Positions 1 through 12,834 of a stretch of 12,834 nucleotides of DNA are shown in pieces. The position numbers and the translations under genes were made by a program. This DNA is from a virus (taxonomy: Duplodnaviria > Heunggongvirae > Uroviricota > Caudoviricetes): the IMG/VR virus record IMGVR_UViG_2526164634_000024, positions 1-12,834 of that record, one strand, 5' to 3'. Below the pieces are notes generated by a model. The model was not told the DNA's origin. It saw nothing but the letters and a program-made list of their open reading frames with translations, and made no database searches. The first letter of the stretch is position 1; each line of letters opens with the position of its first letter.

Positions 1-960
1 TTACTCCTTGTCCATTGCGTACAGCCCATTAACCAGAGCAAATTGTGGCACCCCGTCCGCGATGAAAGTCGCATTAACTCCGCAGGCTTCGCGGATAGCG
101 GGTGCCACAATCTCCGCCCCGCCACCGACAACCATCACCCGCCCGTAACCCGAAAAACCCGCCAGCGCGCGGATCACGCGTTGTTTCAGTGTTTCTTCCT
201 TTTCACGAATAACCGCCATCAGGCTGGCGTAATGCGCGTCATTGTGGATGTGCTGGCGCAGCCAGGCTTCATCATGGCGATGTTCGATAATGGTATTGGC
301 GATGTGGTGACTGGTGCGCATACCGTTAGTGGCCATCACCGACAGTACGGCATCGGCCATAAGAGAAACGCCTACGTGTGGATCGCAAAACACCTGGCTG
401 ATACCTGCCAGTTGCCCCTGAACCTTTGCCACATCCAGCGTGGTTCCGCCCAAATCCACAATCAGCAGGGATTCAAACGGACTCATGTCAGCCAGTGCTT
501 TAAAGCCAGCCGGAATGGATTCAGGCATAACCCGTACGTTACGGATAGTGAATGCTTCGCCGTTCTGGTACTCCACCGGGCGCATAACGTTCGCTTTTTT
601 GCGGTTGATGTTGGCCATGTCCGGCTGTGCGTTTGTGTCGAAATACTCGCTCAGTGGCAGGGTAACAACCACATCCACTTCCTGTGGCGTGATGTCTGAT
701 TTGACCAGCGCGTGATGAATGGCAATGACATTCACATCGCTGTACTGGTATTGCGTGTCGGTCGTCTGGACAAAGCGATCGCTGACCGGATCAAAACCAT
801 AGCGCACGCCATCAAGCATGTAGTTAGCAGGCTGCGAGCCACCGAACGGCGCAGACCATTCCGACTTGAAGCTGTTCGGGCTGATGGCGTTGCGGCGTTC
901 GCCGTTCTCAGTCCATGCCAGCTTGATGTTGGTGGAGCCGTCGTCGATGTAAATTTTCAT
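1..960 (-). CDS. ParM/StbA-family actin-like ATPase (plasmid-segregation type), complete, 319 aa
   Basis: ORF from ATG at 960 to TAA at 1-3; AAGGA Shine-Dalgarno 8 nt upstream. N-terminus MKIYIDDGSTNIKLAW plus PNSFK, YSDVNV..HHAL, VMPESIPAG, LIVDLGGTTLD and VVGGGAE blocks match actin-fold nucleotide-binding motifs as I recall them from R1/R100 ParM (StbA); size matches ParM (~320 aa). Confidence 0.8.
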   Translation of the reverse strand: MKIYIDDGSTNIKLAWTENGERRNAISPNSFKSEWSAPFGGSQPANYMLDGVRYGFDPVSDRFVQTTDTQYQYSDVNVIAIHHALVKSDITPQEVDVVVTLPLSEYFDTNAQPDMANINRKKANVMRPVEYQNGEAFTIRNVRVMPESIPAGFKALADMSPFESLLIVDLGGTTLDVAKVQGQLAGISQVFCDPHVGVSLMADAVLSVMATNGMRTSHHIANTIIEHRHDEAWLRQHIHNDAHYASLMAVIREKEETLKQRVIRALAGFSGYGRVMVVGGGAEIVAPAIREACGVNATFIADGVPQFALVNGLYAMDKE

Positions 961-991
961 GTCGGTTTTCCTTATGTTGATTAATTAATCG

Positions 992-1103
992 TTTACGGGA
1001 TTCTGAAATCCCGTTTTTGCCTGTTTTGTGCGCGCCTCATATATCGCTGCGCGTTTTTTGCTCATTTACGGGATTCGTGAGTCCCGTTTCTGTCTGTTTT
1101 TTG
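992..1103. repeat. Two imperfect ~39-bp direct repeats (992-1030 and 1065-1103, period 73 bp), each containing a short palindrome (CGGGATT-n4-AATCCCG; ACGGGA-n8-TCCCGT) followed by a T-rich tract
   Basis: Read directly: TTTACGGGATTCTGAAATCCCGTTTTTGCCTGTTTTGTG versus TTTACGGGATTCGTGAGTCCCGTTTCTGTCTGTTTTTTG (~33/39 identical). Copy 1 is intergenic between the replication gene stop and the ParM-like start; copy 2 lies in the last ~20 codons of the replication gene. Confidence 0.6.
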
Positions 1104-3877
1104 TTTCCACTGGTCAGGCCACCCCGCAGCAGGTCTGCTTTGCGGCTGGCGCGTTCAGTGGTTTCACTGATTCTCTGTGCGTGCTCTGCGTCGCGGATGG
1201 CGCGCAGCATGTCAGAAAGCACGGTAACGGGTGTTTTCATGGTGTTCTGGTCCTGCTGAAGTGTGGATGCCAGGCGTGCGGCGGCTTCAGGGTCTGATGC
1301 CCCCAGCTGTGCCAGATAGCTGGCGACCGGGTTATGGCGGATCTCCGTGCTGCTTACGCCATGATTACGGCTCAGACGCTGCCAGAGCTGCGTGATTCGG
1401 CTGTCCGGGCGGGTATCCGGTTTGCGTACAATTTCAAATCCCTGCGGTGCAATGATGCTGCCGTCAACGTACAGACTGCCGCCCCGTAACAGGTGCTGCA
1501 TCTGTTGTTCACCGATATGCAGGCCGAGAGATTCAGCAGACTCCCGCCATTCTTTAGCGAGTAACTCGTGGTTATCAGGCAAAGGCCGCTGCTGTTTGCG
1601 GCTCTGTGTCCAGTTCTGCATTTCATCGCTGCTGTTTTTTGCCTGTTTGTCACGAAGCGAACGCATCAGCGCCCGGCGTTCGTGCCGTTTCAGTGAGCGC
1701 ATCCATTCATTTACTTCAACGCCGTCAGGAAGCTGCGGCCACGGTGCTGGCCGTTCTTCCGGCTGTTCTGTCCCGTTGTTGCCTGTTTCCTGTACACGGG
1801 GACAGTTATTGCCACGAGTCCAAGGGGCGGCAGGGCCGCCCTGAAGGTCAAAACCATTTTCGCGGGCGCTGTCTTCCGCTTCCGGTTTACGTCTTACCAG
1901 CTTCCAGTTATCCGGATGTGTGCACACACGGGAAGACTCCCCGATGAGTGGTGACCAGATCCCGTAAATCTGTACGCTCTGTTCGCCGTAATCGTTCAGC
2001 TCATCTGCGAGGTCGTAGGCGGTGCGAATCAGGTAGTCTTTGCGTGGAACAAGTACGCCGCCCTGTTTTTCAATGTAGGAGGCAAAACACCCGGCATCAG
2101 CGGCAGCGAGCACTGCATCCATTGCGTCATCCTTCAGCCGTTGCGGGCCTTCCGGGTTGCGTGCCATCTGGCTGGCAAGGCGGCGCAGTTCACGCCACAC
2201 CTGACGGGAGGGGATGCCAAAGAACTGGAACTGGCGGACCCGGTGAAGGCGCGCCCAGCCGATGGCGCGCTCCACGCTCTCGGCCATTGATTTTCCGGTT
2301 TCGTGGTCAACGCGTGGCTTGCCCGTTTTCGGGTCGATACCATCCACGGCGCGGCTGTCCAGGTTCTTTCCGATGTAGGTGGCGATGTAGCTGGTCGGTG
2401 TGCCTTTTGAGCCGTCGACGTACTCTGCCTTAAAGCGTGGGGTAATATCATCACCCAGCTCGTGACGATCTTCCTGAATGGCAATATCGCGGGTGTGGGA
2501 CACAATGGTGTCGATTTCTTCCGGATGAGCAAAGACCATCATATGCCAGTGCACGGTGCCGTCATGGTGAGGCTCCACCGTGCGGATGCCATACCAGCGC
2601 AGGCCGTCGCGGTTCAGTTTCTTGCGGACCGCCGCAAAAAACGAGTTAACCAGGTAATCGCTGGAGTCGCGCATAGTGGCCCCGTTCCATTTGGGATTCG
2701 GATGACCGTTCTCCGTTGTTGCGTGGTATTTTGACGGGCAGGTGACAGTCAGAAACACCGCTCTGTCGCCACGGGCTTCGGCCAGAAGTTCCAGCCCCTT
2801 CATGGTGGCCATCATTTCTGCCTTACGGTGAACCGGGTTACTTACTCCCGCGTAATACACTGTCTCAAGATCAATCGTGAACCCGTCTTCGTTTTCCAGC
2901 ATGAAACTTTTCAGGAAATCGCGTGTTTTCTCGCGCTGTGCGCGAAACTCGCTTAACGCATCCTGGCTCAGATAGGGCGATGTTTTTCTGGAAACCAGAC
3001 AGGCGGCGCGGAGTTGTTCTTCTCTCCACTCGCAACGTAACAGCCACAGTTTGCGTTTCCACCATTCCGCACAGGTCAGGCGAAGGATTGCGCCCGGCAG
3101 CAGCTCCGTGTCTGGTTCGTTCCTCCGGCCTTTGTCTGTTGTCAGTGCGTCATAATGCGGAGGCATGGCGTGCAGGTGTAACGCCATGCGGGCCAGCATC
3201 TGATACGCCTTCAGCGTTACATCCATGGTCAGCTCGCCATCAGTCGCACCAAAGCCATCGCAGAGTTTTTCGAAGGTGCTGCTGAACATCGCCGCCGTCA
3301 TGGTGGCCAGCGTCTGTATCTGGTGTTTGTTGAGCTGCGGCAGGTAAAGCAAATCGTCCAGGCGTTCGCGTCCGGCAAGGGAGCGATAACCCGGTGTCAG
3401 CCAGTGTCCGTCAGTGCGATCCAGACGTTCGAATATTTTGCGCAGGGTTCCGCGTGCATAGCGTTCTGCCTGCCAGCTCTTTTTGCCTTTCCGGCGATCG
3501 ACTTCCTGTTTTTTGCGCAGGAAAGAGAGGTGGCGGCTCAGAGGTTCACGCAGATAAACGGGAAGCACCTTCAGTGTGGCAAAAGCACGGGCCACCGGGT
3601 CTTGTTCTGTTGCCTGACGCTTGCTGATGATGCTTTGTGCCAGCTTTTCACGCTGTCCGGCTTCCTCAAGGGATGCCATGAGTTTTTTACCCACGGTGGA
3701 TTGTGCGAAAAAGGCTTCCTCCTTCGCTTCCTGTTCTTCCAGAGCCTTTTTGTCTGCCTCAAGGTAGTAACGGATGGCGCGTTGCAGGTCGGTTTCAGTT
3801 TCCTGCCTGTGCTCCGTAAATCTGGCCGGATCAATGGCTGGCCGTGGTTCATTCCAGCTCCATGCAAACTCATTCAT
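1037..3877 (-). CDS. Phage P2 gpA-family rolling-circle replication initiator (HUH endonuclease), ~946 aa
   Basis: Contains VEPHHDGTVHWHMMVF (HUH-type motif, cf. P2 A VEPHHDGTPHWHMMLF as recalled) and SYIATYIGKNLD (cf. P2 A GYIAKYISKNID). Preferred start is ATG at 3877 (MNEFAWSW...), overlapping the upstream ORF stop as ATGA; the ORF-track start at 3904 is a GTG. Stop TGA at 1037-1039. Confidence 0.85.
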   Translation of the reverse strand: MNEFAWSWNEPRPAIDPARFTEHRQETETDLQRAIRYYLEADKKALEEQEAKEEAFFAQSTVGKKLMASLEEAGQREKLAQSIISKRQATEQDPVARAFATLKVLPVYLREPLSRHLSFLRKKQEVDRRKGKKSWQAERYARGTLRKIFERLDRTDGHWLTPGYRSLAGRERLDDLLYLPQLNKHQIQTLATMTAAMFSSTFEKLCDGFGATDGELTMDVTLKAYQMLARMALHLHAMPPHYDALTTDKGRRNEPDTELLPGAILRLTCAEWWKRKLWLLRCEWREEQLRAACLVSRKTSPYLSQDALSEFRAQREKTRDFLKSFMLENEDGFTIDLETVYYAGVSNPVHRKAEMMATMKGLELLAEARGDRAVFLTVTCPSKYHATTENGHPNPKWNGATMRDSSDYLVNSFFAAVRKKLNRDGLRWYGIRTVEPHHDGTVHWHMMVFAHPEEIDTIVSHTRDIAIQEDRHELGDDITPRFKAEYVDGSKGTPTSYIATYIGKNLDSRAVDGIDPKTGKPRVDHETGKSMAESVERAIGWARLHRVRQFQFFGIPSRQVWRELRRLASQMARNPEGPQRLKDDAMDAVLAAADAGCFASYIEKQGGVLVPRKDYLIRTAYDLADELNDYGEQSVQIYGIWSPLIGESSRVCTHPDNWKLVRRKPEAEDSARENGFDLQGGPAAPWTRGNNCPRVQETGNNGTEQPEERPAPWPQLPDGVEVNEWMRSLKRHERRALMRSLRDKQAKNSSDEMQNWTQSRKQQRPLPDNHELLAKEWRESAESLGLHIGEQQMQHLLRGGSLYVDGSIIAPQGFEIVRKPDTRPDSRITQLWQRLSRNHGVSSTEIRHNPVASYLAQLGASDPEAAARLASTLQQDQNTMKTPVTVLSDMLRAIRDAEHAQRISETTERASRKADLLRGGLTSGNKKQTETGLTNPVNEQKTRSDI

Positions 3878-4263
3878 GGCTGGTATCCCGTCACGCGCTG
3901 CCACTCCTGCGAGAAGAGGGCAGAAAGGCGGTTAAATTCAGCGGTGTATTCACTCAGCGAGGCACACCCGCCAGCAGTGCGATGCGCCAGCATTGCCGCA
4001 AATACGGAGGCCGGGGAGTCGTAATACGCCAGCAGTGATTCTCCGTGTGGTGTCAGGCAGTGCAACGCCAGCCCGTGTGGTGTGAAGTCCACGCGGTAGC
4101 AGTCGTCTACTGTGAAATAAAGGGTGTCTGCATTCTCCGGTTTTGTGGTGCGTGCTCTGTTGTCACGACCACGGATGTAGAGATCAAATAATCCCTGAAG
4201 AACGGGAGCCAGACGGGTGTCCTGTGTGCGCACCCATCTTGTGAAGTCATGAGCGTCAATCAT
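3874..4263 (-). CDS. Hypothetical protein, 129 aa, translationally coupled to the replication initiator
   Basis: ATG at 4263, stop at 3874-3876 overlapping the Rep start (ATGA); same strand and context as the early operon. No family recognised. Confidence 0.55.
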   Translation of the reverse strand: MIDAHDFTRWVRTQDTRLAPVLQGLFDLYIRGRDNRARTTKPENADTLYFTVDDCYRVDFTPHGLALHCLTPHGESLLAYYDSPASVFAAMLAHRTAGGCASLSEYTAEFNRLSALFSQEWQRVTGYQP

Positions 4264-4335
4264 GCTGCAATTCTCTTTACTACAGATGTGCGAAGGCCTC
4301 CCGCCGCAAGGTGCAGGAAAGGCCCGGAACAGGAA

Positions 4336-4566
4336 TTAATGGAGTTTGTTTTGCTGCTGGAAGAGTTGTTGCAGCTCGCGCAGATCATCCGCCAGATAGC
4401 TGAAAACAGAGGCGGAATAGATGTTCGATAGCGCGTGGCTGCGCTCATGCAGCATATTGATGTGCATGATTTGCGCGACGCGTGATGCGCGGAAAAGTCT
4501 ACGGTTGATTTCAGTCTGGATGTGACGACGCGCAGCGTATGCGCGCTGTTGTTTGCGGTTTGCCAT
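4336..4566 (-). CDS. Hypothetical small basic protein, 76 aa
   Basis: ATG at 4566 preceded by AAGAGG Shine-Dalgarno at 7-nt spacing; R/K-rich N-terminus. No family recognised. Confidence 0.55.
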   Translation of the reverse strand: MANRKQQRAYAARRHIQTEINRRLFRASRVAQIMHINMLHERSHALSNIYSASVFSYLADDLRELQQLFQQQNKLH

Positions 4567-4745
4567 GGTGTGGCCTCTTTGCTCGGTGATAGAAATAGCT
4601 CACCATCCAGAGTTGAGAATCTCGGGGTGGCGAGACGTACAGGGTTCTCAACACCGGAGAGCAAAGAATCCGGCCCGACCGAAGTCGGCCCCGTACGCCC
4701 CGCCATAATTCTGACGCGAAAAAGACGTGGCAATACAGTACGCAC

Positions 4746-4766
4746 AAAAAAACCGCTGGCGCGGTT
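4746..4766 (-). terminator. Candidate intrinsic terminator on the minus strand (6-bp GC stem AACCGC/GCGGTT, 4-nt loop, followed by a 7-U run)
   Basis: Plus-strand sequence AAAAAAACCGCTGGCGCGGTT reads on the minus strand as hairpin followed by TTTTTTT. The stem is short, so this is tentative. Confidence 0.35.
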
Positions 4767-4838
4767 ATGCGCTTTGCTCTGTATCGGGTTGAGAATCCCG
4801 GCACCCGTTTTATGAGGTGCAGCGGAAATGTAACCTGA

Positions 4839-4867
4839 CCGATTGCGGCATGGCAAGCGGTTTTTTT
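4839..4867 (+). terminator. Candidate intrinsic terminator on the plus strand (8-bp stem with one mismatch, 6-nt loop, 7-T run)
   Basis: CCGATTGC-GGCATG-GCAAGCGG-TTTTTTT read directly. No credible plus-strand protein gene lies upstream, which suggests a plus-strand non-coding or antisense transcript. Confidence 0.35.
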
Positions 4868-4888
4868 GTGTGTGCATGTTCTGGTTTC

Positions 4889-5188
4889 TTACTGGTTCAG
4901 AAAAAAATCAAAAACCTTGTCAATGCGTTGCAGCAGCTCTTGCTGCATTGCTTCCGGCGTTTCCGGTTCGCCAGGTGCCCCCAGCGTTGCGCAGAAATCA
5001 GCGATTTCATGATGGAGCGTCAGGCGAATGGCAGGAGCCGTGGTTCTGGCGTGCTCCAGCTGATCCAGCAGTGCCAGCACAGCAGACGGCGAGAGCATTG
5101 CGCGAAATGCCAGTAATTTTTGAGGAGTTGCCATTCGTTGCAGGGCAAATGCCAGTTCGCGTAGCTTCTGGTGGTTGATGGTGCTCAT
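4889..5188 (-). CDS. Hypothetical protein, 99 aa
   Basis: ATG at 5188 overlaps the stop of the upstream ORF (ATGA); part of the leftward early operon. No family recognised. Confidence 0.55.
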   Translation of the reverse strand: MSTINHQKLRELAFALQRMATPQKLLAFRAMLSPSAVLALLDQLEHARTTAPAIRLTLHHEIADFCATLGAPGEPETPEAMQQELLQRIDKVFDFFLNQ

Positions 5189-5451
5189 GTTCTGGCTTCC
5201 TTCAGTAGCTGGTTAAACATGTGAGTAAGTGGATTGCTACACCCGAACGGCATCGGGTTTACTTGGTAAGAAGCCTGGCCTCCAGTTTTGCGAGCGCGAC
5301 CACCTGTGCTGCGGTTTGTTCTGATGACTAAGCCGCCGCGCCAAAGTTGGCGTAACTCAGCATTAATGGCTGTGGTTGGAGTATTCAGTGCTGCGGCGAT
5401 CTCTCCGCCGCTACACCCCGGATGAGTAGCGATGTAGTCCAGAATGGTCAT
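5185..5451 (-). CDS. Putative small winged-helix DNA-binding protein, 88 aa
   Basis: N-terminal ILDYIATHPGCSGGEIAAALNTPTTAINAELRQLWRGGLV pattern resembles winged-HTH recognition modules; start overlaps the upstream stop (ATGA). Family assignment is tentative. Confidence 0.5.
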   Translation of the reverse strand: MTILDYIATHPGCSGGEIAAALNTPTTAINAELRQLWRGGLVIRTNRSTGGRARKTGGQASYQVNPMPFGCSNPLTHMFNQLLKEART

Positions 5452-5651
5452 CTGCGTGGCTCCTGTACTTGTCGGATAAGATTCACCCGCGCCACGTTGG
5501 TGGCGCAGAAATAAGTGCCGTCAGTGAGGTAGATGTGGTGCGCATCCTTTTCCGAACGATGTTTGTCGATAGTGGTAATCAGGCGTTCGTCGACCTCGTA
5601 TTCGCGCCCTCTGGAGGTAAAGCGAACGACGGAAAAATGCTTAATTGCCAT
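5448..5651 (-). CDS. Hypothetical protein, 67 aa
   Basis: ATG at 5651 with strong AAGGGGG Shine-Dalgarno upstream; stop overlaps the next start (ATGA). Confidence 0.55.
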   Translation of the reverse strand: MAIKHFSVVRFTSRGREYEVDERLITTIDKHRSEKDAHHIYLTDGTYFCATNVARVNLIRQVQEPRR

Positions 5652-5674
5652 TGCGCCCCCTTTGTCCAGTAACC

Positions 5675-6091
5675 CTATGCGTTAAATACGGCACGTTGCG
5701 CGTCATCAATGAATACAGCTTGAGAGCGTTCTATCAGGCGGAGATTTGTCAGAAGCTCAGACTCTTTTGTGTGGTAAGGCGTTATCAGGTATTTGCCGTG
5801 CAGTTCGGCAATAATGGTGTATTGCGGCATCATTGCTGAACCAAGAATATAAATGCAGCGTCCAATGCTGGACGGATTCATGGCTGCAACTGTTGACTGT
5901 GTTTTAAGAGTGTCGATTTCTTTGCTCTGTTCCTCAATAATTTTGGCTGCGTCAGCGGTGATTTTTGCAATGGTCAGTGCGTGAAGTGCTGCCATATGTT
6001 GGCTACGCTTCACGGCATCTTTAGCCGTTTCATCTTCCGCTTCTGATATTTTTTTTAATGTGTTGATAATGCCTTCTTCTTTTGTGTTCAT
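5675..6091 (-). CDS. Hypothetical protein, 138 aa (N-terminal coiled-coil-like)
   Basis: ATG at 6091 preceded by GGAGA Shine-Dalgarno at ~6 nt; no family recognised. Confidence 0.55.
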   Translation of the reverse strand: MNTKEEGIINTLKKISEAEDETAKDAVKRSQHMAALHALTIAKITADAAKIIEEQSKEIDTLKTQSTVAAMNPSSIGRCIYILGSAMMPQYTIIAELHGKYLITPYHTKESELLTNLRLIERSQAVFIDDAQRAVFNA

Positions 6092-6183
6092 TTTATATCT
6101 CCGTTATTTACGTGTGCGAATACCTCCGCGAATGCGGATAGTTTTCAGGTTTTCGGGTTTAATCTGGTGTTTTGTTTAAGCTG

Positions 6184-6297
6184 TTATTCGTCAGTGAAAA
6201 AGCGTTCAATCTTTTTTACTGAATGAATAATTCGCATAATCCCAATGGCGCAGGCCACCGAAATAATCAGAACAAGCCATGAGATAAATATACTCAT
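6184..6297 (-). CDS. Candidate small hydrophobic membrane peptide, 37 aa (MSIFISWLVLIISVACAIGIMRIIHSVKKIERFFTDE); not in the supplied ORF track
   Basis: Hand-translated: ATG at 6297-6295 overlaps the TGA stop of the upstream 80-aa ORF (ATGA), runs to TAA at 6186-6184. One predicted transmembrane helix followed by a basic/acidic tail. Confidence 0.4.
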   Translation of the reverse strand: MSIFISWLVLIISVACAIGIMRIIHSVKKIERFFTDE

Positions 6298-6536
6298 GCG
6301 ATATTCCCCAGCTTATACGGTTCAATATGTTCCCCGCATTCTGCGGCACAGATCAGCTCGGAAAGTTCGTTAAGTGCATCCAGATCATCAGCGTAAAAAG
6401 CGACGTCATACAAACTCCGGATTGCCCTGGTCAATGAGTCACGAGCTGCACGTTCAGCATGAGCGCCTGATGCACTTAAGCGAAAATAAAATCGTTCAAG
6501 TGCTTTGTTAATGAGAGTTTTATATTCTTTGCCCAT
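6294..6536 (-). CDS. Hypothetical protein, 80 aa
   Basis: ATG at 6536 with AAGGG Shine-Dalgarno upstream; coupled to the small downstream peptide ORF. Confidence 0.55.
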   Translation of the reverse strand: MGKEYKTLINKALERFYFRLSASGAHAERAARDSLTRAIRSLYDVAFYADDLDALNELSELICAAECGEHIEPYKLGNIA

Positions 6537-6547
6537 CGCAACGCCCT

Positions 6548-6826
6548 TTAATCTGCTTTCTGAATTTCAGCTTCTGAATCCATACAAATAATTTCGATAT
6601 ATGGTTCATCGCCATTAACCTGACGTGCCTTTTCAGCTTCGCTAATGATTCCGTGTACAGTCTGGTACGGAAGTTCTACGGTCAGGCGCGTGCCGTTCAG
6701 ATAAACGTAAGTAGCTGCATTTTTTTCTGATGGGACAACTCCATCAATAGCTGATGCGCGCAATAACAGTTCACCGCGAAAATCAATAAAACGGATAAAT
6801 ACACCTTGTGCATGCTCTTTGGTCAT
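6548..6826 (-). CDS. Hypothetical protein, ~92 aa (start taken at internal ATG 6826 rather than the ORF-track start at 6925)
   Basis: Start at 6826 follows the stop of the upstream ORF (6837) by 10 nt with a GGTG upstream; the 6925 start would overlap the upstream gene by ~90 nt. Confidence 0.45.
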   Translation of the reverse strand: MTKEHAQGVFIRFIDFRGELLLRASAIDGVVPSEKNAATYVYLNGTRLTVELPYQTVHGIISEAEKARQVNGDEPYIEIICMDSEAEIQKAD

Positions 6827-6836
6827 AACGCACCTG

Positions 6837-7175
6837 TTATAAATCAGTCTGTTTAATAAAACTTTGCCCGCGAAGCAGACGATCAACCGTGCGAAGTGCT
6901 TCGTACAATGTGAAATCCTGTCCAAACTGAGTGTCGCCGTTGCTCAGAGCAAAAATGCGGTTTCCGGTAAATGGGTTGCGTTGGCATCTGTGAACCACGA
7001 TTCCAGCTTTCTCAATCAGCCAGGTGTGTTCACCAATTTGTTTTACGGGATGGCCATCAGGTGTAGCGTGTGTTTCGCTCAGGCTGTAGCGGGAGTTACT
7101 ACGTGATGCACTGGTAGCGAAACGGTTAGCGTGGCGTTCCGTTCCGGTACGAAAATTATGGCGTTGCTTCAGCAT
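6837..7175 (-). CDS. Hypothetical protein, 112 aa; second gene of the leftward early operon
   Basis: ATG at 7175 with GAGGTG Shine-Dalgarno at 7-nt spacing, 14 nt after the Cox-like stop. Confidence 0.5.
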   Translation of the reverse strand: MLKQRHNFRTGTERHANRFATSASRSNSRYSLSETHATPDGHPVKQIGEHTWLIEKAGIVVHRCQRNPFTGNRIFALSNGDTQFGQDFTLYEALRTVDRLLRGQSFIKQTDL

Positions 7176-7189
7176 AAAATTACACCTCG

Positions 7190-7468
7190 TTATTTTGTCA
7201 TCTGCACGTATTTCTCTGCGCTCCTGATGGTTTTCAGGAATATTGCGAAAAGGTTTACTTTGCGTTTTGTGTTTCTTCCTTCTTGGGTGACGGGGATTAC
7301 TGATCTGTCGGCCTGCCTTCTTACCGCAAGAATGCTTTGATTCGTGCGTTTCGCGTAATCTTCCAGGCTTTCTTCAAGCACAGGTAACCCATGCTCATCA
7401 CGGTATGGGTAGAACGCCGCCAAACGCTCAAAATCCGCTTGTTCGTATGTGTTCAGGACTTTTGCCAT
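7190..7468 (-). CDS. Cox-like small HTH excisionase/early regulator, 92 aa
   Basis: First gene of the leftward operon, divergent from the C-type repressor as in P2; length matches P2 Cox (~91 aa); segment YAKRTNQSILAVRRQADRSVIPV resembles the P2 Cox region FAKLIGKSTGAVRRMIDKGKLPVI as recalled. Positional and weak-motif evidence only. Confidence 0.5.
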   Translation of the reverse strand: MAKVLNTYEQADFERLAAFYPYRDEHGLPVLEESLEDYAKRTNQSILAVRRQADRSVIPVTQEGRNTKRKVNLFAIFLKTIRSAEKYVQMTK

Positions 7469-7563
7469 GATGTGATAACCTATTCAATCTGGTGCTATTT
7501 GTGGCTTTTTGTGGCGTCAAGTGGTACTCAACTGATAACCAATATAGTATTCAGGTGCACACC
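7469..7563. promoter_or_regulatory. Divergent control region between the Cox-like and C-type repressor genes; contains direct repeats TTTGTGGC x2 (7498-7505, 7508-7515) and TGATAACC x2 (7471-7478, 7534-7541)
   Basis: Repeats read directly. P2 C repressor is known to recognise direct rather than inverted repeats at the early promoter. Promoter hexamers here are not confidently assignable by eye. Confidence 0.5.
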
Positions 7564-7875
7564 ATGTCAATAGAGATATCAAAGAAGCTAAAAGCAATTC
7601 GAGAATCTGAGGGACTTAGCCAGGCAAAGTTCGCGGATTCAATAGGTATTGCGGTTGGTACAGTTAAGCAATATGAGACTGGTATTAGAGGTGTGGGGAC
7701 GGAGGTTTTACTGAAAATCACAATGCATCCGAACTTTAAAAAATACACCACGTGGTTGATGAGTAACGAAACAAATGAGGCTGCTGGGCAGATCAGTCCG
7801 TCTCTCTCCCCTGATGGGCCAAAAAGCACATCGCCTTCTCAAAAACCCCGCAAGACTGGCACACAGCCCGGCTAA
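7564..7875 (+). CDS. P2 C-type immunity repressor (XRE-like HTH), 103 aa
   Basis: Start at internal ATG 7564 (MSIEISKK...) with AGGTG Shine-Dalgarno at 7 nt. HTH region LSQAKFADSIGIAVGTVKQYETG and C-terminal ...PNFKKYTTWLMSNE...AAGQISP resemble P2 C (..PQFTKYTLWFMTNQ...SGQIAP) as recalled. Located directly upstream of int, as in P2. Confidence 0.8.
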   Translation: MSIEISKKLKAIRESEGLSQAKFADSIGIAVGTVKQYETGIRGVGTEVLLKITMHPNFKKYTTWLMSNETNEAAGQISPSLSPDGPKSTSPSQKPRKTGTQPG

Positions 7876-7924
7876 TCATGGAGCGCTGGGGGCATGGTGG
7901 TCTTGTAACGCTGGGGTTTCACGA

Positions 7925-8902
7925 ATGAGCATAAAATCAATTCCGGGAGGGTATCTTCTTGACATGCGCCCGGAGGGGCGTAAAGGCAAACGCATTCGCA
8001 AAAAATTTAAAACGAAATCGGATGCAGTTTTATATGAGCGGTGGGTGCTGGCGCAACAGCATAACAATGAGTGGAAAGGAAACTCCATTGATCGCCGTCC
8101 GCTGTCAGTGCTTATTGACTTGTGGTGGAAATACCACGGCCAGCTAATGAAGTCAGGGCATAACACGCGCCTTAAATTGCTGCGCTTGAGTGAGGCAATG
8201 GATGACCCGTGCGTGCATAAACTTAATACAACGATGCTCACCGAGCTACGTGTGTCCAGGATAGAGCAGGGGATACAGCCCAGCACCATAAATCGAGAGA
8301 TTGGGGCGTTAAGCGCGATGTTTACCGCACTCATCTCATCCGGCCATTTTCTTAACGATAACCCCGTTCAAGGCCTTAAAGGAATGAAGGTTAACGAGCG
8401 CGAAATGGGATATCTGAGTAAGTCTGAATGTGTTCAGTTGCTGGATGCACTGGCTGAAAATCCCGATGAACGACTGGCTGTCGAAATCCTTCTGTCGACC
8501 GGGGCGCGATGGGGCGAGGTAGCGGCACTGGAGCAGCGCCGTGTTCTTCATTGTCGAATCACTTTTTCAAAAACGAAGAACAGCAAAAACCGTACCGTTC
8601 CTATTTCTGAAAGCCTGTTTGAAAAGATCAAAAAACGGGGCGGGAAACTGGTGTTTCCGACGCTGGATTATTCATTGGTTCGCGATGTCATCAAAACGGT
8701 CGCACCTGATGTTCCTGACGGCCAGGCTGTTCATGCGCTGCGCCACACCTTCGCCAGTCATTTCATGATGAACGGCGGCAATATTCTGACGCTCCAGAAA
8801 ATTCTGGGGCACGCAAAGATTCAGACAACGATGATTTATGCCCATCTTGCGCCGGATTACCTGCAGGATGCGGTGAGGTTTAATCCACTAGGAGGTGCTT
8901 AA
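7925..8902 (+). CDS. int: Tyrosine integrase, P2 Int-like, 325 aa
   Basis: Start at ATG 7925 (MSIKSIPGGY...). Conserved catalytic-region motifs LSTGARWGE, HALRHTFASHF and MIYAHLAPDY (catalytic Tyr); strong overall resemblance to P2 Int as recalled (GKRIRKKF, TGARWGE, PISE, NGG.I.TLQ.ILGH). Confidence 0.9.
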   Translation: MSIKSIPGGYLLDMRPEGRKGKRIRKKFKTKSDAVLYERWVLAQQHNNEWKGNSIDRRPLSVLIDLWWKYHGQLMKSGHNTRLKLLRLSEAMDDPCVHKLNTTMLTELRVSRIEQGIQPSTINREIGALSAMFTALISSGHFLNDNPVQGLKGMKVNEREMGYLSKSECVQLLDALAENPDERLAVEILLSTGARWGEVAALEQRRVLHCRITFSKTKNSKNRTVPISESLFEKIKKRGGKLVFPTLDYSLVRDVIKTVAPDVPDGQAVHALRHTFASHFMMNGGNILTLQKILGHAKIQTTMIYAHLAPDYLQDAVRFNPLGGA

Positions 8903-8904
8903 GA

Positions 8905-9267
8905 GTGAAGTTTCATTTAGATGAACTTAAAAGAATGGCAACGCTCGATAATTTTGCGCGTTTTCTCAATGAGTCGTCTACGAATGAAAAATGTTTGTCG
9001 TGTGGCGATACGGATATGTACATGTATTTGACGAATATTGTTGAGGTGGGGCCTGAGCCGAAAACTGCTGAGGAGTGTGATTTAGGCACTTTTGTTATGC
9101 TTGATTACATCGGTCCATTTACTGGGTATCCGGGATATGAGGGACATGATCGGGAAAATATCCATAACTATGAATTCCGACTTACCTGTAACAGATGTGG
9201 GTTTGTTCATCGTTACTCGGCCCGGGCCTTTATGAACTGGGTAGGCAAGCAGGGTGATGAGAAGTGA
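8905..9267 (+). CDS. Hypothetical Cys-rich (putative Zn-ribbon) protein, 120 aa
   Basis: GTG start at 8905, 2 nt after the int stop, with GGAGG Shine-Dalgarno 9 nt upstream (inside the int 3' end). Two CxxC pairs (CLSCG near residue 30, CNRCG near residue 100). Visibly AT-richer than the flanking int. No family recognised. Confidence 0.55.
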   Translation: MKFHLDELKRMATLDNFARFLNESSTNEKCLSCGDTDMYMYLTNIVEVGPEPKTAEECDLGTFVMLDYIGPFTGYPGYEGHDRENIHNYEFRLTCNRCGFVHRYSARAFMNWVGKQGDEK

Positions 9268-9704
9268 TGGCAGAGAATGTTGCACATATTTCGCGGTTCA
9301 GAAAAAAGAAAGAGAATGCCTATAATGTATCCAACAACCAAGTAACAGGAAGTGGTAATGATGGAGGTGATGGCATGAATGACGACCTTGAACGGCGGGT
9401 CAGTTGCCTGGAAAGTGATGTGACTGAAATCAAAAACAACCTGATTACTCTCACCACAAGAAGCGAATCCTTTGCTACCAAATCTGATGTACTGGAGATT
9501 CGCGAAGGGTTGAGGCTTGAGATGGCAGAATCGCGCCAATCCCTGAAGTCTGAGATGGCTGATTTACGCCAGTCTCTGAAAGTTGAGATGGCTGAGCATC
9601 GTACTGAACTTCAGAAATCATTTGCAAATCAGACTTGGTTACTCACAGGTATTGTCCTGTCTGCGATGGCCGTGCTTGTGGCTGTGGTTACTGTTATTAA
9701 GTAA
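9267..9704 (+). CDS. Hypothetical coiled-coil protein with C-terminal transmembrane anchor, ~145 aa (alternative start at 9375 giving ~109 aa)
   Basis: Start overlaps the upstream stop (GTGATGA). Internal ATG at 9375 has a perfect GGAGG at 7-nt spacing. Three tandem 11-residue repeats (EMAESRQSLKS / EMADLRQSLKV / EMAEHRTELQK) and hydrophobic C-terminus LLTGIVLSAMAVLVAVVTVIK. Confidence 0.55.
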   Translation: MAENVAHISRFRKKKENAYNVSNNQVTGSGNDGGDGMNDDLERRVSCLESDVTEIKNNLITLTTRSESFATKSDVLEIREGLRLEMAESRQSLKSEMADLRQSLKVEMAEHRTELQKSFANQTWLLTGIVLSAMAVLVAVVTVIK

Positions 9705-9829
9705 ATTTATGGCGGCGATATGATCCACAAAGTGACCACATCCCTGTTATTTGTTGTGGTTGGCTGTGTTTTTGTGTGTCTGTAAGTCTTTGATAATTAT
9801 CTAACTTGTTGATTTTTACTTGTGTTTAT

Positions 9830-9845
9830 GGCCGCTTGCGCGGCC
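9830..9845 (-). other. Perfect GC hairpin GGCCGC-TTGC-GCGGCC located 19 nt downstream of the acrB stop
   Basis: Read directly. No U-tract follows on the acrB strand, so it is not a canonical intrinsic terminator; it may be a 3' stabilising stem-loop or part of a recombination/junction region. Confidence 0.4.
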
Positions 9846-9864
9846 TTAGTGATTACACGTTGTA

Positions 9865-12834
<2,970 letters not shown>

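Follow-up and report, generated by a model that had tools for sequence, protein, structure and literature searches.

Why would an integrating P2-like phage lineage with rolling-circle replication keep an R1-type partition machine under strong purifying selection? The question is raised by the first gene of a 12,834-nucleotide stretch of DNA from a caudoviricete virus (IMG/VR record IMGVR_UViG_2526164634_000024, positions 1 to 12,834; hereafter the window), whose remainder is a P2-like early region that encodes an HTH repressor and an integrase. A first-pass annotation, made from the sequence alone, had described this gene as an intact ParM/StbA-type gene directly after a gpA-like gene. It had proposed either that the element persists as an episome or that an actin-like ATPase has been recruited into a defence module, in a slot that is a hotspot for anti-phage cargo in P2-like prophages. 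The features of the window on which the present analysis bears are collected in Table 1.

Table 1. Positions of the features discussed, with strand and basis or remarks
Feature	Position	Strand	Basis or remarks
parM, intact 319-aa actin-fold partition ATPase	1..960	-	ORF list, Pfam, PHROG, PDB, BLASTP
Shine-Dalgarno region of parM, AAGGAAAA on the sense strand	966..973	-	Read from the sequence; ~6-13 nt before the ATG
Perfect 12-bp palindrome GATTAATTAATC	979..990	.	Between the proximal repeat and the parM Shine-Dalgarno region
Proximal 42-nt repeat, candidate parC half-site block	989..1030	-	Palindrome ACGGGATT-N4-AATCCCGT at 995-1014
Distal 42-nt repeat, candidate second parC block	1062..1103	-	Palindrome at 1068-1087
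gpA-type rolling-circle replication initiator, 955 aa from the first listed start	1037..3904	-	Pfam Phage_GPA
76-aa ORF of the Derepression family (PF25738)	4336-4566	-	Directly downstream of the C4 and isrK RNA matches
C4 antisense RNA match	4623-4710	-	Rfam gathering level, 78.5 bits
isrK sRNA match	4746-4820	-	Rfam gathering level, 62.8 bits
120-aa ORF, overlapping the next	8905-9267	+	Between the integrase and the prophage end
146-aa ORF, overlapping the previous	9264-9704	+	Between the integrase and the prophage end

An Intact ParM Gene Follows the Replication Initiator

The parM open reading frame starts with ATG, and its stop codon occupies bases 1-3 of the window, which ends exactly there. 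Pfam domains cover the protein from end to end, with StbA_N at residues 1-157 (E = 9.8e-81) and the C-terminal ParM domain at residues 159-316 (E = 1.3e-68). The protein is also matched by PHROG 691, annotated as 'partition protein' (E = 8e-89), and residues 1-316 align with the solved structures of R1 ParM (1mwk, 4a62, and others) with an E-value of 1.7e-92. By BLASTP, it is 46% identical to R100 ParM over the full length (68% positives, E = 2e-109). The nucleotide-binding motifs DDGSTNIK (residues 6-13), PESIPAG (146-152), DLGGTTLD (169-176), and GGGA (279-282) are invariant among the ParM proteins of the phage clade described below, and we take Glu-147 and Asp-169 of the phage protein to be the counterparts of Glu-148 and Asp-170 in R1. 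With its full length and with the phosphate-1, phosphate-2, catalytic-Glu, and adenosine motifs all intact, the protein has the features expected of a type II partition motor. When ParM, ParR, and gpA were compared with NCBIfam, all three fell below the cut-off of every model. The Shine-Dalgarno region in front of parM is kept among the relatives.

The gpA gene lies on the same strand, and 76 nt separate its stop codon from the start of parM. Its product matches Pfam Phage_GPA at residues 194-518 of 955 (E = 2.2e-130), and its homologues in relatives carry the annotation 'replication endonuclease'. The approximately 430 C-terminal residues of gpA are without family assignment. The profile and structure matches and the short distance between the genes bear out the first-pass description of an intact ParM/StbA gene, with the actin-type fold, directly after gpA.

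A ParR Gene Is Found Immediately Downstream of parM in Relatives

The parR gene of the window copy would lie to the left of position 1, and it is described here from relatives, the closest of the fetched loci being 98.5% identical to the window over 4960 nt and none being identical. In phage P88, in E. coli chromosomes including CP180607, and in the IMG/VR relatives, a gene for a protein of 103-104 residues (103 in both P88 and CP180607) begins 4 nt past the parM stop codon. The protein belongs to the Plasmid_stab_B (ParR/StbB) family (PF10784, E = 1e-24). It is the small DNA-binding partner for which the first-pass annotation had suggested looking at this place, and parM and parR are apparently translationally coupled. 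The gene was found in all 80 IMG/VR loci, with one copy truncated (79 residues) and another cut by the contig end; these loci are biased toward the best matches, are all 98-100% identical, and serve for population statistics rather than for deep comparison. Small variable ORFs follow parR in P88 and CP180607; beyond them lie the genes for portal and terminase, which are on the opposite strand.

At least two ParR allele families occur, approximately 54% identical to each other and with the same first 14 residues (MTTPTRRISFYLKP). An alignment that includes R100 ParR and distant phage ParR proteins reveals a conserved N-terminal domain ('RRISFYLKP...AGLAL') and a conserved C-terminal 'N-x-x-x-L/F-F-P' tail, which aligns with the C terminus of R100 ParR. 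From the R1 system, including the structure of ParM with a ParR peptide (4A62), we take the tail to be the ParM-binding peptide, and the N-terminal strand is presumably the DNA-reading element of a ribbon-helix-helix fold. In terms of pN/pS, residues 1-67 have a ratio of 0.12 and the tail (residues 93-103) one of 0.07, against 0.81 in the linker (residues 68-92), which evolves near neutrally. This pattern of selection agrees with a predicted DNA-reading N terminus and a predicted ParM-binding tail in the small downstream adaptor of the relatives. No match to ParR was found among PDB sequences at E ≤ 1, and a tblastn search of PLSDB returned copies within P88-like prophages only and identified no plasmid donor.

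Two Repeats Upstream of parM Are a Candidate Centromere

Two direct repeats of 42 nt, 81% identical and with starts 73 bp apart, are situated upstream of parM. Each holds a palindrome with 8-bp arms of the form ACGGGATT-N4-AATCCCGT, and the distal repeat overlaps the last ~20 codons of gpA. The core motif of the repeats has no other copy in the window or in one whole 34-kb phage genome. Phages of E. coli, Plesiomonas, and Hafnia each have exactly two sense-strand copies of a degenerate version of the site, GGG-N8-14-CCC-N-AA-N-G, at a distance of 72-73 bp from each other; between the proximal copy and the parM ATG lie 52-59 nt, and in the Plesiomonas and Hafnia phages the sequence of the copies has diverged. 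The degenerate motif is nearly absent from the rest of these loci, a specificity that is only indicative because the motif was built from the sites themselves. The distal copy of the Hafnia phage lies within a different upstream ORF. The phages of Serratia and Enterobacter have a different ParR N terminus and other repeat sets. Two repeat blocks are also found 5' of parM in R100 and in a Pantoea plasmid, spaced 94 and 72 bp, respectively.

One IMG/VR relative differs in the 3' end of gpA, and its homology restarts at approximately the beginning of the distal repeat, which suggests that a module boundary lies near this point. Polymorphisms of the repeats in the E. coli population fall mainly in the palindrome loops. 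The ParR allele family does not covary with variants of the upstream sites, the same sites being present with both families. Across the repeat region, A-tract/C motifs recur at multiples of ~10-11 bp. We regard the segment 989-1103 as the likely candidate for parC. The main rival reading of this segment is that the palindromes could have a transcriptional role, instead of or besides that of a centromere, since on the (+) strand a T-run comes after each of them and both have terminator-like scores. When 955-1110 was folded as RNA on either strand, the z-scores were low, owing to pairing between the two similar palindromes, and the folding separated neither the centromeric from the transcriptional reading nor one strand from the other.

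parMR Is Probably the Tail of the Early Operon

A consensus promoter scan of positions 1-1400, a stretch in which a ParR-autoregulated promoter embedded in parC would fall, revealed no sigma-70 site, and the terminator scan gave no sense-strand site between gpA and parM. Because neither a recognisable promoter nor a sense-strand terminator is present between the two genes, parMR is probably the distal end of the early cox-B-A operon, reached by read-through from gene A, with gpA and parM probably in one transcript. The simplest inference is that parMR is silent in the repressed lysogen and is made when the phage genome is extrachromosomal.

The sole hint of a promoter is in the 12-bp palindrome in front of the Shine-Dalgarno region, which includes a -10-like ATTAAT, and a weak regulated promoter may therefore be situated here. 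In 7 of 81 relatives, both arms are changed and the palindrome is kept (GGTTAATTAACC); a change in a single arm is seen in 3 of the 81. The candidate roles of this element are an operator, a -10-like element, or a small hairpin.

A Proposed Role in Partition of Circular Phage DNA

The family matches, the ParR partner, the selective constraint, and the upstream repeats make it likely, in our judgment, that parM encodes the motor of a complete type II (ParMRC-type) partition cassette that works on circles of phage DNA. If it operates as R1 does, dimers of ParR would bind both repeat blocks of the candidate parC, and the conserved C-terminal tail of ParR would capture the ends of ATP-bound ParM filaments. 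Growth of the filaments would then push or position copies of the circular phage genome. The two proteins would be made while the phage DNA is extrachromosomal, as it would be between infection and integration, once the prophage has excised, or during an occasional plasmid or carrier state. The cassette would prevent the loss of excised or not-yet-integrated genomes at cell division, or it would distribute replicating circles.

The module resembles ParMRC (StbAB) of R1 and R100 in the order parC-parM-parR (with parC a candidate in the phage), in the full-length alignment of ParM, in the membership of both ParR proteins in PF10784, and in the two repeat blocks upstream of parM. There are also differences. 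The replicon is an integrating P2-like phage, and the phage ParR is only 26% identical to that of R100 and is devoid of an internal segment of ~12 residues. The R100 parC consists of 2 x 5 iterons of 11 bp of the AAACCC type, whereas the phage has two 42-nt units with 8-bp palindromes. The phage arrangement also differs in that the distal block runs into the 3' end of gene A and in that the promoter scan picked up nothing between the two blocks.

Functionally, the nearest precedent is SrpMRC, likewise a type II partition system on normally integrated elements, the integrative conjugative elements SXT/R391. Its expression is confined to the time at which the element is about to become extrachromosomal, together with that of the excision functions, and experiments showed it to stabilise both a test plasmid and the excised SXT/R391 element (PMC4489591). 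R1 ParM is only a distant relative of SrpM, and SrpR is without a recognisable ParR domain. SXT/R391 is conjugative and not viral, and function has been demonstrated there, whereas the phage parMR is known from sequence.

A second precedent leads to a different reading. The AlpAC/alpS system of the Corynebacterium glutamicum prophage CGP3 consists of an actin-like filament former and a DNA-binding adaptor that act in replication and transport of viral DNA, and AlpC and AlpA are needed for efficient viral DNA replication (PMC4446434, PMC5539076). In the same way, ParM filaments and ParR could move or anchor replicating circles for replication or packaging during the lytic cycle and have no role in inheritance. 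Such a role would suit the position of parM, which shares its strand with the replication initiator and follows it immediately with no terminator between, and CGP3, too, encodes a filament former and an adaptor that work on phage DNA. However, AlpC belongs to a distant actin-like family from a Gram-positive host, with a shown role in replication and transport rather than inheritance, whereas the phage ParM is 46% identical to the R1 segregation motor and its ParR retains the R1-type architecture. We therefore consider an exclusively lytic role rather unlikely. The lytic and inheritance timings are not mutually exclusive, and the sequence cannot tell them apart.

An StbA-type ParM (47.5% identity over the full length) is also encoded by D6, a P1-like temperate phage. 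D6 is an obligate plasmid prophage of 91 kb, whereas the element studied here has an integrase and is chromosomal.

P88-type Phages Are Found Almost Exclusively in the Chromosome

At least 80% of window positions 1-4300 is present in 1223 of 5426 complete E. coli genomes at 95-99% identity, and some genomes contain up to four matching places. Nearly all of these places are chromosomal (1630 of 1632). The same region is found in phage P88 and in other Xuanwuvirus genomes. In the intact ones among P88 (NC_026014, Xuanwuvirus), phiSM, PhiR44_2, and 520873, ParM is 97.5-99% identical to that of the window and occupies the same position after the endonuclease gene. The early-region mosaic of the window differs from that of P88, the DNA match to P88 stopping at window position 3556, and so does the chromosomal junction.

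The window copy is integrated next to acrB. Prophage homology ends at approximately 9841-9848, within a GGCCGC...GCGGCC hairpin, and the acrB stop codon (9865-9867) is some 18 nt away. This acrB junction was found in none of the 5426 complete E. coli genomes. In relatives with this integrase and the two ORFs that follow it, the insertion is next to btuC instead.

One circular record, a 34,461-bp 'plasmid' (pZ1323PEC0009-2, NZ_CP148288.1, our locus L003) of strain Z1323PEC0009, is a complete P88-like phage including the integrase. It is 100% identical, over the 14.5 kb compared, to a phage integrated in the chromosome of the sister isolate Z1323HEC0067 (NZ_CP148378.1). An excision product that was assembled as a circle could account for this one record. 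The genomes of P88 and pZ1323PEC0009-2 both include genes for capsid, tail, and lysis as well as int, gpA, and parMR, and hence combine virion and lysis functions with partition genes, as phage-plasmids do. We know of no case in which the cis-acting rolling-circle replication of the P2 type supports stable plasmid maintenance. Because the matching places are chromosomal with two exceptions, the plasmid state of P88-type phages is rare or transient, if it exists at all.

Pfeifer et al. (2021) listed P88 among putative phage-plasmids with possible episomal and integrative states (PMC7969092). The episome proposed in the first-pass annotation is thus plausible and has a published antecedent, while a stable plasmid lifestyle is not supported by the mostly chromosomal location of the matches. 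It is conceivable, though we think it doubtful, that P88-type phages are facultative phage-plasmids, in which a ParMRC lineage of their own enables a genome that is excised or not yet integrated to be maintained and segregated over generations as a low-copy episome. Such a facultative episome, if real, would be a hidden carrier state affecting lysogenisation, prophage loss, and horizontal spread. On a related and equally doubtful view, ParMR made by a prophage might act on a parC embedded in the chromosome. An extrachromosomal state might be either like that served by srpMRC in SXT or a true phage-plasmid phase. The module is present in about 23% of complete E. coli genomes, and if it stabilises extrachromosomal phage, it matters for prophage dynamics.

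parMR Belongs to the Phage Backbone and the Cargo Hotspot Begins after parR

The order gpA-ParM-ParR (PF10784)-variable genes-portal recurs in P2-like prophages of four other genera, with ParM identities of 62% in Plesiomonas, 62% in Hafnia, 58% in Serratia, and 53% in Enterobacter, and an E. coli variant with a 93% identical ParM has the same gene order. A Pantoea homologue, 51% identical, is on a plasmid. In a neighbor-joining tree of 106 full-length ParM homologues, calculated without bootstrap, all ParM proteins with a verified phage context form one clade apart from R1/R100 and the Pantoea plasmid. When 50,697 phage records were searched, ParM homologues were found in P88-like phages and in the phage-plasmid D6 only, and a contig scan with ParM returned relatives at 97-99% or ~50% identity only.

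ParM is intact in 80 of the 80 IMG/VR loci, and parM is under strong purifying selection, with a pN/pS of 0.05 among 53 haplotypes. Full-length ParM proteins fall into clusters of 1308 and 4287 member sequences. Truncated clusters of 261, 229, and 188 residues also exist, with 414-649 members, many of which may be contig-end fragments. Some singleton database proteins (P0005, P0007, P0010, P0011, P0013, and P0015) combine ParM segments with ParR or with unrelated domains from phages (tail protein I, macro domain, GPO); these fusions are probably frameshift or assembly artefacts.

The gene order kept across genera, the separate ParM clade, and the purifying selection indicate that parMR is a conserved part of the backbone of P88-type (Xuanwuvirus) and related P2-like phages, as far as these comparisons reach, and is not cargo. 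Variation sets in one module further along. Where IMG/VR loci extend as far as the portal gene (48 loci), the interval from the parR stop codon to the portal stop codon measures 1.0-2.5 kb and has at least 23 unrelated configurations. The cargo includes an AbiLi/AbiLii-like ATPase-Toprim pair (locus L039), which matches a defence model, and an RmrA-like protein with a PIN-like partner (locus L074), of which RmrA has a defence-model match. HicAB and a KAP NTPase occupy the equivalent position in the Serratia and Enterobacter phages. By eye, Fic/Doc-like and HigBA-like pairs that resemble toxin-antitoxin systems were also seen past parR.

The anti-phage hotspot proposed for the slot after gene A is therefore real and rich in defence-like genes, but it begins after parR and is without ParM. 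The idea that ParM itself is variable cargo of the tin/old class fails, the gene being present and intact in all relatives examined, including those of the four other genera. Searches for defence genes in P88-type prophages should accordingly start after parR and not after gene A.

The neighborhood of this hotspot would invite the reading that the cassette is itself hotspot cargo with a defensive or exclusion function, or that it disturbs the partition of competing plasmids and phages; the presence of several matching places in some genomes and the existence of two ParR allele families would suit such functions. ParM matched no PADLOC family at E ≤ 1, for which reason a defence role of ParM was dropped, and its partner is a canonical ParR rather than a component of a defence module into which it might have been recruited. 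Whereas the cargo changes, ParM and ParR are constantly present, and their arrangement is kept in five genera. The two ParR families share the N-terminal 14 residues and the upstream sites, and the parC iterons of R100 are unrelated in sequence to the phage repeats. Defence, exclusion, and incompatibility are on this evidence very improbable functions of the cassette. That parMR is a non-functional relic of an old plasmid-phage recombination, passively carried, is barely credible: an integrated copy, as nearly all are, has no need of partition, and truncated ParM clusters exist, but parM and both functional ends of ParR are constrained, the full-length protein predominates in the loci and clusters described above, and synteny is held down to the 53% identical ParM of Enterobacter.

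The module has been recorded before. In P88 the two genes are annotated as 'plasmid segregation protein ParM' and 'partition protein', and Magaziner et al. (2019) gave the phiSM homologue only as a 'fitness' gene (PMC6456863). The module is thus already known as an annotation, in RefSeq and P88 genes that are 97-99% identical, and as a published computational hypothesis, and no functional or experimental work on P88 parMR was found in the literature. Four points are added here. The module forms a phage-specific, selectively maintained lineage that spans several genera; its ParR partner and a conserved two-part upstream element, the candidate parC, have been defined; the hotspot is placed after parR; and ParM does not belong to a defence system.

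Other Features of the Window

Further along the early region, the C4 and isrK RNA matches and the ORF of the Derepression family together look like an RNA-controlled antirepressor unit of the P1 immI type within a P2-like early region. The two overlapping ORFs near the prophage end had no Pfam or PADLOC assignment. Both are conserved in the relatives inserted next to btuC, and they are possible moron genes; the 146-residue product has a coiled coil and a C-terminal hydrophobic segment.
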